Assembly: GCA_038046765.1 (NCBI GenBank)
Contig: JBBSVN010000005.1
Location: forward strand, 64,001-128,000
Reading direction: 5' to 3'
Source: Candidatus Micrarchaeota archaeon
Lineage (GTDB): Archaea; Micrarchaeota; Micrarchaeia; Anstonellales; Bilamarchaeaceae
DNA length: 64,000 nt
Under the pieces are notes generated by a model. The model worked only from the letters and a program-made list of their open reading frames with translations, was not told where the DNA came from and made no database searches. Positions 4,780 through 61,327 of the stretch are shown piece by piece. Every line of letters starts with the position of its first letter. Position 1 is the stretch's first letter. A program made the translations under genes and the position numbers.

Positions 4780-7700
4780 TTAGTCCACTTTCTTTTCATG
4801 TGCGTTTGCTGGGGGTTTTTCTTCCTGTGCATTTACTTCTGTTCCATTTGTTTTTTCCTTCGGTACATTTGCTTGGTCGGTTTCTCCTGCATTCACCGTA
4901 TTTACTACGTCTGTTTCTTGCGTCGTATCTGGTTTACTTTCAAATGCGGCAAAGCTAGCGACCTTTTCCCCTTCGTTAAGTTTGATTATCCTAACTCCCA
5001 TCGTGTTCCTGCCGATTATCGAGATTCCATTCGCTCCTACGCGTATTGTCTGGCCTTTGTCAGTTACAACTAAAATCTCATCGTTTTCATTTACGCATTT
5101 AGCTCCGCAGACAAAACCATTTCTTTCTTCGGTTTTTATGTTTATTATTCCGCTTCCGCCTCGCCCTTGTAATCGGTATTCTTCAATCTCGGTTCGTTTT
5201 CCGTATCCGTTTTCAGTTATTGTCAATAATACGGAAGTATTGCAAACAGTCATGCTGACAACTTCGTCATCATCGTCCATCCTAATTCCAATTACCCCTT
5301 GGCCGGTTCGTCCTATTTCGCGTGCATCTTCTTCCATGAATCTTATTGATTGACCTTTTTTAGTTGAAATTAAAACGCTTTGCTTGCCATCGGTTTTAAC
5401 TACATCAACTAGTCCGTCCTTTTCCTTTAATGTAATTGCAATAATTCCGTTTTTTCTTGGATTATTAAAGTTTGCTAGTGAGGTTCTTTTTATTATCCCC
5501 AACTTAGTTGACATCATTAAAAATTCATTTTCATTGAACTTGTCAACAGAAATCCATGAGGTTACCTTTTCATCTTTAAGATCAAGCAAGTTAACTATCG
5601 TTTTTCCTGTTGCATGTCTTGAAACCTCTGGGACTTTATATGATTTCAACCAAAATACTCTTCCTAAATTCGTGAAGCATAACATGTAATTGTGATTTTT
5701 AGTTACAATAACATCGAGTATTGCATCTTCTTCTTTTGTCTCGCCACCAACTCCCTTTCCGCCTCTTCTTTGTACGTGATACTCGTTTAATTTCATTCTT
5801 TTTATGTATCCTCTTCCAGTTATTGCTAGTACAACGTCATCGTTTGGAATAAGCGCTTCGTCATCAATCTCCTCATCGCTATCAAGTATTTCTGTTCTTC
5901 TTGGGTTGTTGTGTTTTTCTTTTATTTCTGCTAATTCTACTTTTATAATTTCTAAAATTTTGTTAATATCTGAAAGAATATCTTTTAATTTTAAAATTTC
6001 TTTCATCAGTTCGCTTAGTTCTTCCTCTATCTTCTTTCTTTCTAATGAAATTAATTTTTGGAGTCTCATATCTAAAATAGCGTTAGCTTGTTTTTCGCTT
6101 AGTTGATAATTATTCATTAATCCAAGTCTTGCTTCCTGAACATCTTTTGATTTTTTTAAGAATGCGACTATTGGTTCAATGTTGTCTAATGCCTTAGTTA
6201 ATCCTTCTAATATGTGTGCTTTATCTGTTGCAACTCTAAGTTCAAATTGGCATCTTCTTGTTACAATTTCTTTTCTAAAATCTACAAATTCACGAATCAT
6301 TTCATATAACGGAAGTACTTTTGGTTGCTTTCCAACAAGTAGTAAATTTATTATTCCAAAACTTGATTGTAAACCCGTATGCGTATAAAGTTGGTTTAGT
6401 GTTACTTCTGGGTTGGCATCTCTTGTTAATTCAACCACTACTTCTATTCCAGTTCGGTCGCTTAAATCATGTACTCCGCGAACTCCTTCGATTACCTTAT
6501 CCCGAACTTTATCTGCAATCGTTTCGATGATACTAGTTTTAGTTACCTGGTATGGAATTTCTTTTATTATTATCGCATTTTTCTTATGGTCTATTTCGCA
6601 TTTTCCTCTTAATTTTATGCTTCCTCTTCCTGTTTTTTGAGCGTTATAAATCCCGTTTCTTCCTAATATTTGTCCGCCAGTTGGAAAATCAGGGCCCAAA
6701 ACATGGCTCATAACCTGTTCTTCATTTGCGCCACTAATGTAAGCCAATATTCCATCAACAATTTCGCCTAGGTTATGCGGTGGCATGTTTGTTGCCATAC
6801 CAACTGCGATTCCAGAACTTCCGTTAATTAATAAGTTTGGAAATTTACTTGGCATTACTGTCGGTTCCTTTAATGTTCCATCAAAATTAGGTACAAAATC
6901 TACTGTTTCTTTTTCTAAATCATTTAGCATTTCTTCAGCAAGTTTTTGTAATCTTACCTCGGTATATCTCATTGAAGCGGGCGGGTCTCCATCAATCGAA
7001 CCAAAATTTCCCTGTCCTTCTACTAAAGTGTATCTCATGCTAAATTCTTGAGCCATTCTTACTAATGACTCGTAAATAGGTGAGTCTCCGTGTGGATGGT
7101 ACTTACCCATACAATTATGAGAAATCATTCCGTTTGCAATAAATTCATGCGAGTTTTCAACTTGAATGTCGTAAGTTTTTTCGATACCCGCGTCCTCTAT
7201 TTTTTCCACTTTTAAGAAATATGTGTCATTGTCTAAAACTTCATTTATGAAATTAGCTAAAGGAGATTTCATTTGATTTAATTTTTCTTGTATCCCCAAA
7301 TCAACAATCTGGGTTCTTCCAAGATTTTTTTCTTTTAAGTCCTTTGAATATCTAATTTTTGTTCCATCAGGGTATTTTATCCCCATTTTGAATTTTTGGT
7401 TATCTGCATCTTGGTACCAGCCACCGCCTAAATGCTTATTACTAAATTCTCCAAATATTATCTTTCCTGCATATGGGATTTGGTCATATTTGCAAACTTT
7501 CATATCTTGTCCTATTTTTTCCTTACCTGCTATTTTTCTTTCATCAAAGAATTCTAACATTTCCGCTAATTCAATTGCAAATCTACTTCTTACTTCAAGT
7601 GAGTGTGCTGGGAAATTTCCCTTAGCCATTCTACCATTTATCATGTGTGCTTCTTTGGGTTCCTGCACATATCTTGTACTAAAAATACCTATATGTTGTA

Positions 7701-8709
7701 AAATAATCTGAATCTGGTCAATCATTTTTTCTGAAACAGAGACATATCTCAAACAGTTTCGTTCGCTATCTATGCTCCCATCTCCATCTATTAATCCGCT
7801 TAATAATGCGTTTATAACTGGTTTTGGTGAAGAAAATATTTGTTTAGGAATAAATTTTGTTTCTGCCAAAGCGTTTTCTAATTCAAATGTTTTTACTAAG
7901 AAGTTGTTTACATCTACTTTATTTACCCTTACTAGATACATCTTATTTAGAAGAATTTGGCCTGTTGTTGTTTCTACCTCATATTCTCTTTCTTCCAATG
8001 TTGCTTCATAATTAAATTCTTCATTTAATATCTCTATTAATTTTTGGATTACTGCAATCGAGTTACTCGAAACCGCGCATCTGTAATCCTTACCGTGATT
8101 ATATCCTTTTTCAACCCAACCATCTGATAATAATTGACCTAAAAGATACGCTATGTTTTCATTTAAGTATACTTTTTTACCTTCAAATTCTCCAAGTAAC
8201 ACATGCTTTTTTATGTTTGGATAAATAGATCTTGAAACGACGTATTGATTTTCTTTTAAATCCTTCGCTTCAATCCAAACAAATTCCATTTTTTCATTCA
8301 ATATCTTGAATTTTTGTGATTTAGTAACTATGTTTGAAATTCCATTTGCAAGTTTGATTTTTATTAATTCTTTTTCAGGCATTTCGTATAGCTCGTTAAC
8401 TTTATTTTCTCCATTTTGAGTGTAAACAATGTCTCCTTTCTCTATTTCTTGTATTGGGATTAATCCCCTTTTAGCTGCAACTAAGGTATCTTTTACAAAA
8501 CATTCCCCAACTACTCTAGCTGATTTTTTAGTTGGTTTACTATGTGTGTTTCCTAGTTCGTGCATTGAAAAAAGTATTCTTCTATGTACTGGTTTTAATC
8601 CATCTCGAATATCGGGAATTGCCCGTCCAACAATTACGCTCATCGAGTAGTTTAAGTAACTTTCTTTTAGGTCTTTTTCAATTGACTGGTTGATGATTAT
8701 TTCGGACAT
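4780..8709 (-). CDS. gyrA: DNA gyrase subunit A, intein-containing
   Basis: [18 protein letters not shown], catalytic SMRYTE, GyrA-box QRRGGKG, C-terminal beta-pinwheel repeats; probable start ATG 8709. Confidence 0.97.
7114..8502 (-). mobile_element. Intein with LAGLIDADG homing endonuclease (463 aa) in GyrA
   Basis: Starts CFVKDTLV after SARVVGE and ends [21 protein letters not shown] followed by +1 Cys ([10 protein letters not shown]); LAGLIDADG-like motifs LLGQLLSDG and [10 protein letters not shown]. Confidence 0.95.
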
Positions 8710-8815
8710 AAATACCACTAAATCTATAGTTTAATCGTGTGTTTTTTTATTTATAAAATTAGGCTGTTTTTGCCTTATATATTTATCGCAAAAACGTATT
8801 AAATACCTGACGGTT

Positions 8816-18517: not shown

Positions 18518-18741
18518 AATCTTTACCTGTGTGCATTTTGTAGCTTATAATTCATTCTAATTAGCATATAATTTATCGTCGTAATCTAATATGCCCAAAA
18601 GGGTTTAAATTGGTTTGTTTTTGGGTAATCTTGCAGAACCGATTATCTTAAAATAACTTGCTTGAATTTATTAGTCTACTAGTTCTTTCTAGAAGAGAAA
18701 TCCTTTTCTCTTAAATAAGCTAGTCGATAATTGATAATAAT

Positions 18742-18826
18742 CGACTGGCACTGCCATATGGATGTATTTGTGCAGTGCCCTACAGGTCTGTAATTAGAAA
18801 ATACACTGTTTTCTAAGCATGCCTGT
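18742..18826 (+). repeat. tRNA-upstream double-hairpin element, copy 1 (before tRNA-Gly)
   Basis: CGACT-GGCACTGC..GCAGTGCC-CTACAGGTCTGTAA-TTAGAAAA..TTTTCTAA-GCATGCCTGT; matches 27237-27327 and 61008-61150. Confidence 0.85.
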
Positions 18827-18847
18827 TGATAATAAGCTAATACAAAT

Positions 18848-21498: not shown

Positions 21499-21652
21499 GG
21501 GCCTGTAGCTCAGTCTGGATCAGAGCGGCACCGTCCTAAGAGTTCTGTGTCATGTGTTTTACGTTTTGTTCGTTATTCGTTCAAGACGCTAAACTGAAAA
21601 CACAAAACTCGCATGTAGGTGTAGGCCATGAGTTCAAATCTCATCTGGCTCG
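21499..21652 (+). tRNA. tRNA-Arg(CCT) with a 78-nt intron at 37/38 (21539-21616)
   Basis: Acceptor GGGCCTG/CTGGCTC (one T-T mismatch), D stem GCTC/GAGC, anticodon stem GCACC/GGTGT, T arm ATGAG-TTCAAAT-CTCAT; spliced loop GTCCTAA. Confidence 0.85.
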
Positions 21653-27061: not shown

Positions 27062-27236
27062 AAAATCAAATACTTCTCTAAGTAGATATTTTTGTTGTCA
27101 AATAATATAATAGCTATTATTTTTAATTGTTAGGTCTAAATATATTATACTGGCAGGTAGCTAGTGGCTCTTAGCTAGTAGCTTTATAATTAAATTGATT
27201 TGTTAACCTTATAATAATGGGTTTATAAAAAAATAA

Positions 27237-27327
27237 CGACTGACGCGACCGTTATTTTATACTAAGTGTCGCGTCCTACAAGTCTGTAATAAGAAGAGCC
27301 TCTTTTTTCTTAGTAAAGAGTATGTAG
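27237..27327 (+). repeat. tRNA-upstream double-hairpin element, copy 2 (before tRNA-Cys)
   Basis: CGACT-GACGCGAC..GTCGCGTC-CTACAAGTCTGTAA-TAAGAA..TTCTTA..TGTAG; TTTATAAA box at 27222-27229. Confidence 0.8.
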
Positions 27328-27342
27328 TAAGTTTATACTAAC

Positions 27343-44465: not shown

Positions 44466-44620
44466 TGGCGGGCTCAGAGGGAAATTCCGAGTTTTGTGTT
44501 TTCAGTTTAGCGTCTTGAACGAATAACGAACAAAACGTAAAACACATGACACAGAACTCTTTTGAACCCTCGGCGGACGGATTAAGAGTCCGTTACTCTA
44601 CCAAGCTGAGCTATGAGCCC
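44466..44620 (-). tRNA. tRNA-Lys(CTT), CCA encoded, with a 78-nt T-loop (59/60) intron (44483-44560)
   Basis: Acceptor GGGCTCA/TGAGCCC-G-CCA, anticodon arm ACGGA-CTCTTAA-TCCGT, T stem GAGGG/CCCTC; relaxed BHB. Confidence 0.95.
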
Positions 44621-52753: not shown

Positions 52754-52875
52754 AGCCCCATCGTCTAGCGCAATCTTAGAAATAAGCTTGTGGACAACGG
52801 TCAAGGATATCAGGTTCTGGACCTGGGTACACCGGTTCGAAAGATTTTGCAAACTCGAAAATCCGGTTGGGGCTA
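52754..52875 (+). tRNA. tRNA-Gln(CTG) with two introns: D-loop (about 15/16; 52769-52797) and T-loop 59/60 (52842-52861)
   Basis: Acceptor AGCCCCA/TGGGGCT+A, anticodon arm TCAGG-TTCTGGA-CCTGG, T stem ACCGG/CCGGT; central helices GTCT/GGAC and TTCG/CGAA. Confidence 0.93.
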
Positions 52876-53029
52876 TTTTCATTTCCAATTGAACGAAACG
52901 TCGTTCAATGGACTACAAAACGAAAAGTCGTTTTATATGTTCGCAAAAATGAAACGCTAGTAACCCCTTTACTGGTGTTCACTGGATTTTTTTCAATACT
53001 TATAAAAACCCTTATTCTCTAATAATATT

Positions 53030-54878: not shown

Positions 54879-55088
54879 TGGACTCGCAGGGATTTTCAAG
54901 CACCGCCCTTTTCAACACCTCGGTTCTACAAGTATCAAAAAGGGCTGTTGTCACCCCAAAACAAGCTATTCCAAGAATCGTTTCTTAGTAAAACCTGCAA
55001 TGGTTGACCTTCTAAAAAGAAAAGATGGTCTTTGAACCCTGAGTCTCTGCAATGCGAATGCAGCGCCTTACCGTTTGGCCACGAGCCC
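54879..55088 (-). tRNA. tRNA-Ala(CGC) with a 138-nt T-loop (59/60) intron (54893-55030)
   Basis: Acceptor GGGCTCG/CGAGTCC+A with G3-U70, anticodon arm CTGCA-TTCGCAT-TGCAG, T stem CAGGG/CCCTG; central helix TTCA/TGAA. Confidence 0.93.
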
Positions 55089-56272: not shown

Positions 56273-56902
56273 TTAATCACCATGTCTTCTCCCTTCAAAC
56301 CAATCAAACATATCCTGCCTGAGTTTACTTTTTCTTCCATCCGGGTGAGTAAAAACAACACCTTCGACAAAGTGCTTGAATTCTTTGTTTTCCCTTCCGT
56401 TTATCCTATAAGAATAAAGTGGCATAAGTTCCTTGAACCAGTTTGAAATAGTTTCAAAATCTTTTTTGTACTTGCCACTGCTCCAGGATTTATACTGTAA
56501 ATGGTCTTTGCAGTAGGTTTCAAACGGCAACCATAAATGCCCTTTAATGTTGTATGGATTTCCATTTATCTTCTCTCCAATAAGTTCTCCAAAATGCTGG
56601 CCATCTGCAAAGTTTTCCATGTAACCTTTATCATAACTTTCAATTACACCTTTAACTAAATGCATCTGAGTTTTATTAAAAAATGGTACAGGGTTTATTC
56701 TATTCCATATCGAAGTTACTATTCCGTTTTCCATTACAACACTTACATTTGTTCCATGAATTTTTTCTATTGCCATTACGCTTGGATCATTAAATACCCA
56801 TTCATAACCGGAAGTAACTTCGGGGGTAACTAAATATTCTTCCTTTTCATTCATTTTTCGAACGAACGGGGATTCTAGTTTAGGGAAATCGCGTATTTGC
56901 AT
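56273..56902 (-). CDS. Compact ATP-dependent RNA ligase-like nucleotidyltransferase (RLIG1/DUF5565-like)
   Basis: Motif I EKIHGTN, motif III GELIGEKINGNPY, motif IV EGVVF, motif V SKLR. Confidence 0.78.
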   Translation of the reverse strand: MQIRDFPKLESPFVRKMNEKEEYLVTPEVTSGYEWVFNDPSVMAIEKIHGTNVSVVMENGIVTSIWNRINPVPFFNKTQMHLVKGVIESYDKGYMENFADGQHFGELIGEKINGNPYNIKGHLWLPFETYCKDHLQYKSWSSGKYKKDFETISNWFKELMPLYSYRINGRENKEFKHFVEGVVFTHPDGRKSKLRQDMFDWFEGRRHGD

Positions 56903-60809: not shown

Positions 60810-61007
60810 TTTAACTCCTGTTTTTGGGTAATTCGGATAAATGTTATAATAAGTATATACTTGTAAGTATTTTAAATGCTATCGAAAATAAGAAATTTAC
60901 TATGTTTAGCTAATTCTAAAGCATTAAAAACTATTCTAATAACTAATTATTCTACTACTTTTGCCTTAAGTTTATTCTGGGTAAAATGTCCGTTATTTAT
61001 AAGTTAA

Positions 61008-61150
61008 CGACTGGCAATGCCGTTAGAATTATTTTAATGCACTTCAAAAACGACGATTCGTTTTTGAGGATTTGAGAAAGACGATTCATTCTCAAAGTTG
61101 CCCTACAGGTATGTAATTAGAAAAATCACTTTTTTCTAAGTATGCTTGTA
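61008..61150 (+). repeat. tRNA-upstream double-hairpin element, copy 3 (before tRNA-Leu), carrying a 56-nt nested insertion
   Basis: CGACT-GGCAATGC..GCA[61042-61097]TTGCC-CTACAGGTATGTAATTAGAAAA..TTTTCTAAG; the 3' part is about 62/74 identical to the Gly copy up to the tRNA start. Confidence 0.85.
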
Positions 61151-61170
61151 TGTAATAAGTATATACAAAT

Positions 61171-61327
61171 GCAGGGATGACAGAGCCCGGTCAAATGTGC
61201 GGGACTTAAGTGAACAAAATTGTTCAAAGAAATCCCGTGACTTAGTGTCTGCGCAAGTTCAAAGAGCCCTTTTCGGGTTGCCTAAAAGGCAACACCTCAA
61301 AATGGCCTGAAAATCCTGCTCCCTGCA
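61171..61327 (+). tRNA. tRNA-Leu(TAA) with two introns: 37/38 (61211-61231) and T-loop 59/60 (61264-61313)
   Basis: Acceptor GCAGGGA/TCCCTGC+A, anticodon stem CGGGA/TCCCG, long variable arm, T stem GCAAG/CCTGC (one mismatch); TTCA/TGAA helix. Confidence 0.92.

Follow-up and report, generated by a model that had tools for sequence, protein, structure and literature searches.

We asked what the 56 nt are that split the stem of an element upstream of a tRNA-Leu gene in a Micrarchaeota genome, and whether they are related to the introns of the same genome. The DNA analysed, referred to here as the window, is a stretch of 64,000 nt (G000:C5:64001-128000); its source genome, G000, has ~1.5 Mb, 34% GC and a completeness of 89.7%. 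Coordinates are those of the window unless a contig or locus is named. A sequence-only reading of the window had proposed that one pool of small hairpin units is inserted into leaders, trailers and introns, the introns being its spliceable subset.

The insertion upstream of tRNA-Leu

The features at this locus, and two uninterrupted copies of the module that carries the insert, are the following.

61042..61097, no strand assigned: element B, a twin-hairpin insertion of 56 nt (unit 1, 61042-61069; unit 2, 61070-61097), target duplication absent
61006..61167, plus strand: upstream module U at tRNA-Leu, 106 model positions plus the 56-nt insert (162 nt matched)
61013..61020, plus strand: 5′ arm of the U stem
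61039..61102, plus strand: 3′ arm of the U stem, in two parts (61039-61041 and 61098-61102) separated by B
18740..18844, plus strand: uninterrupted U copy before tRNA-Gly, a model of the empty site
27235..27339, plus strand: uninterrupted U copy before tRNA-Cys, a model of the empty site
61171..61327, plus strand: tRNA-Leu(UAA), with two introns, one of ~21 nt at the anticodon (~61211-61231) and one of family I4 in the T-loop (~61264-61313); intron ends parsed manually

As had been described, the 56 nt interrupt the 3′ arm between GCA (61039-61041) and TTGCC (61098-61102), which together form the partner of the 8-nt arm at 61013-61020. The insert is indeed made of two hairpins: two 28-nt units in register fold separately (z -4.6; none of 200 shuffles was equally stable). 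All strings quoted in the sequence-only reading were found in the sequence. An ancestral origin of the 56 nt in all homologous elements is refuted: since the 3′ arm is uninterrupted in 17 of 17 aligned full-length U copies, the insert is the derived state, and we consider it a derived mobile insertion with high confidence.

Module U is a dispersed family of ~105 nt, matched 27 times in G000. The stem consists of 8 pairs, with a spacer of 17-18 nt; double changes occur in 6 of the 8 pairs, with one G-U cell, so that the covariation is almost all Watson-Crick. Four other U copies carry a twin hairpin of family D, which is different from B. Many U copies end 3-6 nt upstream of a tRNA and some 2-3 nt upstream of a start codon, and a T-rich tract is found at the distance typical of a TATA box. 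The 3′ half of U is presumably a promoter, and the module as a whole is probably a promoter-associated dispersed module. Because of this B (at -129 to -74) is probably not transcribed as part of a leader, where the insert had been placed; it would lie upstream of the promoter instead. We set aside a conserved riboswitch or T-box-like leader: among the relatives, weak matches to U were found in only 4 of 98, the covariation is of the Watson-Crick kind just described, and U ends at the presumed start site. At the tRNA-Leu orthologue loci that were read in relatives, U is absent. Examples of U also include L247 and L252; genes read as ThrRS and TyrRS are among those preceded by U, and direct repeats of up to ~33 nt flank some U copies.

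No allele lacking the insert was found in the contigs of four runs, which drop rare variants. A contig from another study's run spans the B insert unchanged, and all four runs also contain another organism with B inside an element of family A. One DNA run has a 48-nt joint across the Leu T-loop intron; a paralogous tRNA-Leu is its simplest explanation, and it was not used as evidence. The Leu anticodon intron (61211-61231) is a short hairpin with a stem similar to the units of family D.

B has matches in 11 of the 175 other genomes of the order, and these are strong only in G013, G031 and G019. In total there are 8 distinct complete copies of 51-56 nt in four genomes, at unrelated sites, and the five that were compared share 38-45 of 56 positions. 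The flanks read (G/A)CA|T in five copies and GCT|TT in three, always at a palindrome centre or in a stem or loop, and the repeat flanking the element is at most 1 nt in 8/8 copies. Four of the 8 copies occupy the centre of a family A element; in G013, G031 and G019 this is the CA|TG centre, and the empty form of those A elements is known. None of the 8 complete copies is an intron. B at the Leu locus lies outside the tRNA gene and forms no bulge-helix-bulge: when its two junctions were paired by hand on each strand, at most 1/4 pairs resulted. Taken by itself the B copy is an ordinary neutral insertion, and its interest rests on the family.

The pool of twin-hairpin elements

A second pair of hairpins had been reported 3′ of tRNA-Gln, at 52888-52938. 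It is present, within a slightly larger element.

52754..52875, plus strand: tRNA-Gln(CUG), with D-loop and T-loop introns
52886..52939, minus strand: element E, a twin hairpin of 54 nt that lies in the trailer of tRNA-Gln and is flanked on each side by a 3-nt repeat

The Gln-trailer pair is a sister family of element B; the paralogue Gln(UUG) lacks the trailer element. The shared core motif occurs 3 times in the window versus 0.19 expected (0/100 shuffles reach 3). Its enrichment over the whole genome exists and is modest, with 6 exact occurrences (5 non-coding) against 3 (1 non-coding) in a reversed control. Given these 6 versus 3, a census of twin hairpins that does not use the motif is clearer: it counted 29 twins (overlapping pairs and a few AT-rich pairs included) in 190,774 non-coding nt of G000, and 0 in each of five dinucleotide shuffles. 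That the hairpins arose by chance, or are ancestral terminator-like hairpins, could draw on the small numbers for the narrow motif and on a tRNA-Ala intron hairpin that scores at chance level (below). This explanation is refuted by the census, by the homologues at unrelated loci in other genera and by the empty U copies, and we give it practically no weight.

The twins fall into several subfamilies of 45-62 nt. Their insertion sites are palindromes centred on A|T, or the loops of hairpins, and elements are found nested inside each other. G000 has one copy of B, ~20 of A, ~6 of C, ~10 of D and 2-3 of E, and solo hairpin units occur besides the doublets. Filled and empty forms of homologous sites are seen for A and E in leaders of IS200-like elements.

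Among the genomes of the family, the shared core hairpin was found at 82 places in 37 of 99 (control, 0). We read 69 of the 80 places in relatives, and 7 of them, by our reading, are in tRNA introns. The remaining places read are intergenic twins, tandem arrays, or single hairpins accompanied by a duplicated and inverted piece of the adjoining tRNA or gene end. Tandem arrays of hairpin units with a period of 54-61 nt adjoin tRNA ends or a gene start at L106 (G027), L107 (G008) and L122 (G159). In several genera a single core hairpin lies between a copy of the downstream gene's first codons and an antisense copy of them, an arrangement that is possibly a translational control or an insertion relic; it was seen at these loci.

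L080, L100, L123, L124: ahead of a putative dph2 gene
L107: ahead of a putative cdc48 gene
L119: a further locus of this arrangement

Relation of the elements to introns

We parsed ~43 tRNA genes in G000, a set that may be incomplete, by script and by hand, because ARAGORN misses most of them (1 found in the window); Rfam gave only tRNA matches in the window. Most of the genes contain introns, at the D-loop, 37/38 or 59/60, and the splicing endonuclease is of the ARMAN-2 epsilon type (match to PDB 4FZ2, E 2e-129). Besides this enzyme, G000 encodes a second EndA-like protein of 175 aa (G000:C10, L024:1456-1983, minus strand). Other genes seen in passing are one for an RNA ligase domain protein of 209 aa between the Ala and Leu tRNA genes (56273-56902, minus strand), a GyrA gene with an intein that contains a LAGLIDADG domain (4780-8718, minus strand), and a gene read as RNase P RNA, which Rfam did not confirm, with a core-type hairpin inside it (G000:C5:35950-36200).

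Two intron examples had been cited as members of the hairpin pool.

54973..54986, minus strand: hairpin in the tRNA-Ala T-loop intron, indistinguishable from chance
21539..21611, plus strand: tRNA-Arg anticodon intron, family I1, identical in 74/74 nt to the T-loop intron of tRNA-Lys (gene 44470-44620, minus strand)

Both strings exist, the first at 54973-54986 and the second at 21575 (plus strand) and 44515 (minus strand), and neither example held. The Ala hairpin matches element units at 9/20 positions (p 0.80 against shuffled hairpins). The Arg/Lys string had been taken for an intron apex; it belongs to a 3′ arm in a heptamer-periodic intron family and is no hairpin apex. When 14 hairpins from introns and tRNA genes were compared with 40 units taken from relatives, where they belong to intergenic or nested elements, only two scored: a His intron of G000 (18/20, p 0.001) and a nested insert (15/20, p 0.025). 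The B and Gln units reach 16-19/20 against the same 40 units, a figure that is not independent because queries derived from B and E had fetched the comparison loci.

Five intron families in G000 are shared across isotypes. The bodies of I3 and I5 each have one intergenic copy in G000, antisense to the flanking gene (E 0.0014 and 0.00019, with 0 matches below 0.01 in a reversed-genome control). The matches of I1 in G000 may be low-complexity sequence, and I2 has no copy outside tRNA genes in this genome. The proposal that the introns are the spliceable subset of a wider insertion process fits I2 well and I3 and I5 in part, and it gains no support for I4, the family of the Leu T-loop and Ala introns, which has 0 matches outside tRNA genes in G000. 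Likewise, the idea of one pool stands insofar as insertions drawn from a common set of small hairpin units are found before tRNA genes, within trailers and inside introns, and as some families of introns have intergenic relatives; it is not supported for the two introns cited. We regard a shared pool that includes some intron families as likely. Elements may have given rise to introns, or introns to elements.

Family I2 (41-55 nt, six copies in G000) is a twin hairpin that ends at the 3′ splice site and whose last arm forms the splicing helix. Its junction pattern was found at 41 places in 23 of the 176 genomes of the order (control, 1): 35 in structural RNA genes, 2 in spacers, and 4 chance matches. 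The latter (L145, L157, L165, L166), and five of the eight new places in the class, are chance matches without the first hairpin and were dropped before the counts that follow. The 34 copies tabulated, which leave out the Met copy of G000, comprise 16 in T-loops, 12 in D-loops, 1 in an anticodon loop, 3 in 16S rRNA, 1 in 23S rRNA and 1 in a probable RNase P gene. Rfam confirmed the rRNA hosts; the RNase P label (L147) is our own reading, unconfirmed by Rfam. The rRNA insertions of ~45 nt (L158, L162 and L194 in 16S, L171 in 23S) are at conserved positions and may affect primer binding.

The second hairpin of I2, whose 3′ arm lay outside the search pattern, covaries: there are 33 double-change cells versus 9.2, a value reached in 0/500 shuffles, although related rows inflate the shuffle tests. 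Between the 3′ arm and the exon, 3.56 of 4 positions pair versus 2.51 (n = 18 copies outside T-loops, 0/5000), while the T-loop copies (n = 16) reach only 2-3/4. The inner arm of 6 bp closes the splice fold completely (6/6) in 31 of 34 copies. In the two spacer copies the hairpin is kept and the outer pair of the inner arm is broken. Comparison of the copies thus shows that I2 junctions form a bulge-helix-bulge, and I2 would be a spliceable class, with removal predicted from sequence. In a class sample (29/401 genomes), an I2 copy of 48 nt lies within a ThiD-ThiN gene and keeps its reading frame; the extra 16-17 residues are absent from 10 of 11 class-mates, and the eleventh has ~2. A stretch of 26 nt is common to an intron of G031 and an F-type twin of G013, the latter itself lying within an intron; other F twins are intergenic. 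At L198 (G053), the trailer of a tRNA gene carries a second copy of the sequence of that gene's T-loop intron, and an intergenic I2 copy follows.

Twins have clearly been inserted into pre-existing introns, as seen in the C2 tRNA by comparison with three paralogous introns and at L105 and L118. This would be expected if the elements were ordinary MITEs of a since-lost DDE transposase that owed their likeness to introns to such later insertions, as would the imperfect terminal inverted repeats of ~10 nt in A, B and E and the exact 3-nt repeat of E (4 of 9 copies in relatives, and the G000 copy). Against this, the flanking repeat is at most 1 nt for B (8/8) and 0-2 nt for A (14/14), and I2 is no passenger in introns, because the end of the element is the splice junction. 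These points weaken the MITE explanation, which we consider very improbable.

A route through RNA would reverse the relationship: excised introns would be circularised and reverse-splice, or be copied by a reverse transcriptase of the DGR type, and the cDNA would insert, so that introns would be the source of the pool and the intergenic twins their stranded descendants. In favour of this route, reverse transcriptases of this type are present in 5/5 genomes tested, with two in G000; the occurrence of I2 in many structural RNAs with a 3′ arm matched to the target, the identical introns in different tRNAs, and the hairpin cassettes that accompany long duplications of the target at the ends of tRNAs and genes also agree with it. 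However, A, B and E have no splice arms and are nested at DNA palindromes without duplication, the intergenic I3 and I5 copies are antisense to flanking genes, and the reverse transcriptase genes are split into two frames. On balance the RNA route appears unlikely. Among these genes (L260-L264), the two in G000 (G000:C4:12214-13286 and C4:70753-71861, both minus strand) each follow an AAC-rich stretch and are split at a GA-repeat tract; those of G013, G031, G019 and G001 seem to be broken at the same place, possibly as a slippage-controlled switch.

Movement of the elements and comparison with known systems

Can an enzyme be named that moves the elements? A Y1 transposase was not found in G000. 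In the family, Y1 is present in 24 of 99 genomes without association with the core motif (10/24 versus 27/75, p 0.64), and we rejected it as the mobiliser. Among those listed in relatives, the Y1 genes are IS200-like and have end hairpins of their own, with A and E as passengers in their leaders. PF01609, PF12762, PF13358 and PF01548, each of these four families searched for in five genomes, were not found in G000, G013 or G031, and the ends of the PF01609 loci in G019 and G027 differ from those of the elements. DDE enzymes of the IS1595 and IS630 types were each rejected with 0/5 genomes. As for a GIY-YIG partner, the sole match among five genomes is a 527-aa open frame in G000 that we take to be UvrC-sized, and this candidate was also dropped.

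It might be that there is no dedicated mobiliser, and that template switching in replication or repair, together with gene conversion, copies and extends hairpins, the families being recombining lineages of palindromes. The absence of the four DDE/IS110 Pfam families from G000, G013 and G031 agrees with this, as do two chimeras of A and B units (L037, L039), tandem arrays, and cassettes whose second hairpin is an inverted copy of the target flank. So does the mixture of junction types, which vary among subfamilies from none through 2-3 nt to long duplications; because of these differences, a single enzyme would not simply give the mixed outcome. On the other hand, ends and lengths are precise and conserved at unrelated sites across genera, target words are family-specific, and the B insert has no homology to its U target. 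We judge such a process without a mobiliser to be rather improbable, slightly more so than the RNA route.

Insertion is precise, targets are specific to each family, elements nest, and copies survive with three outcomes: in a spacer, in frame, or spliceable by structure. The reading we favour, with some reservation, is that of a mobile twin-hairpin element that moves as folded single-stranded DNA and has I2 as its spliceable class. The 56 nt are a copy of a non-autonomous mobile DNA of two ~28-nt hairpins that landed in the stem of an older U module. Such elements may be cut and pasted in trans as folded single-stranded DNA, a form of movement favoured by the lack of target duplication, the palindromic targets, the antisense copies and the Watson-Crick-only covariation; the last could also arise, without selection, through palindrome correction during replication. 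The mobiliser would be a hairpin-recognising enzyme that follows a REP- or IS200-like logic, and for this part of the proposal, an enzyme that acts at the DNA level, our confidence stops somewhat short of even. Harmless sites (spacers, other elements, existing introns, in-frame positions in a gene) would let copies persist. Copies may also persist where the end of the element and the flanking exon refold as a bulge-helix-bulge that an epsilon-type endonuclease could remove, and subfamily I2 would be this removable class.

More speculatively, and less likely than not, Micrarchaeota may have a class of two-state DNA elements of 45-60 nt that is a prokaryotic counterpart of Introners: twin hairpins that lack their own transposase and depend on an enzyme of the host for movement, in which the variable arm of the second hairpin selects the target or is rewritten to match it and, once transcribed, forms the splice motif by refolding with the exon. 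Insertion would then be coupled to spliceability, and many of the non-canonical introns in tRNA and rRNA genes of the lineage would have such elements as a main source.

A 2014 review, in the part concerned with transposition, calls the mechanism for archaeal tRNA introns unknown (PMC4090602), and the relevant part of a 2026 preprint on Asgard archaea, in which copying, mobile elements and reverse transcription were tested, gives no general intron route (10.64898/2026.10.13.758758). Twin-hairpin elements and their intron relatives offer a testable answer to the origin of archaeal introns. Because one family combines a defined architecture of ~46 nt, relatives that lie outside RNA genes and an arm whose match to the target can be predicted, the arrival of an intron becomes directly testable by sequencing populations and with the endonuclease in purified form. 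Hidden introns of 45 nt in 16S rRNA are, in addition, of consequence for primers and for annotation. We found no description of a twin-hairpin element family in the literature searched, which consisted of main texts, mostly non-subscription.

The closest likeness is to the REPINs (REP-BIMEs) of bacteria, doublets of short palindromes with RAYT transposases as described in the part of Bertels and Rainey (2011, PMC3116915) cited here. The elements B, A and E share with them the short-palindrome doublet as recurring unit, the extragenic position, higher-order clusters, hairpin ends and the lack of an encoded protein. They differ in that each unit folds as its own hairpin (in RNA and DNA folds) and not as part of one long hairpin, in having 1-20 copies per family and not hundreds, and in that no RAYT (Y1) gene is flanked by element units (0 in G000; other ends in the Y1 genes listed in relatives). 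REPINs are, to our knowledge, not known to become introns. The archaea covered in the relevant section of one survey have only IS200-type Y1 proteins, and the same source sets out the hairpin and guide logic of IS200 (PMC6006769). Like elements derived from IS200/IS605, B and A have no duplication and have hairpins at both ends; unlike them, they have no TnpA element with the same ends among those found, their junction type varies by subfamily, and they nest at palindromes. With respect to the guide logic, left flanks are biased and the centre of the element resembles the target in A, B and E, and the targets are mostly copies of a few host elements. MITEs are short, non-coding and have inverted ends. 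The terminal inverted repeats of B, A and E recall a MITE of the DDE type, whereas their target duplication is not of fixed length.

Eukaryotic Introners are spliceosomal introns derived from transposons, and Rickettsia palindromic elements are small mobile DNAs that survive in genes in frame. The elements described here resemble both as small mobile DNA that survives in genes, spliceable or in frame; they differ from Introners in the protein endonuclease at a bulge-helix-bulge, in their much smaller size and in the archaeal host. In ARMAN-2, intron-rich tRNAs, an epsilon-2 EndA, introns at 59/60 and in the D-loop and relaxed motifs are described (PMC3239211; PDB 4FZ2). G000 has the same endonuclease type, intron positions and relaxed motifs; unlike here, that account, in the part cited, treats the origin of introns only generally and has no intergenic hairpin family (PMC3239211). 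Mobile DNA has been linked to intron gain in Caldiarchaeum, where a passage reports a tRNA disrupted by an integrating mobile element (a 1.8-kb recombinase element; PMC3293823), and the 16S rRNA of Thermoproteales has hairpin introns <50 nt, with homing endonucleases involved according to the part cited (PMC4496867). Both features recur here, with the difference that the element of 45-56 nt is the intron itself.

For the tRNA introns of Thermoproteales, near-identical introns across isotypes and positions led to a proposal of gain at the DNA level (Fujishima et al. 2010, as summarised in PMC4090602). G000 likewise has highly similar introns in different isotypes (Arg/Lys, 74/74; five families). 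Unlike in Thermoproteales, an intron family here has relatives outside RNA genes (in spacers, in antisense orientation, and in frame within a protein-coding gene) and is built internally as a twin hairpin. The elements thus work like REPINs, and they stand apart from REPINs in RAYT, single-hairpin fold and copy number and from MITEs in target duplication. What is new, in our analysis, is that they would extend intron transposition of the Thermoproteales type to donors outside RNA genes.
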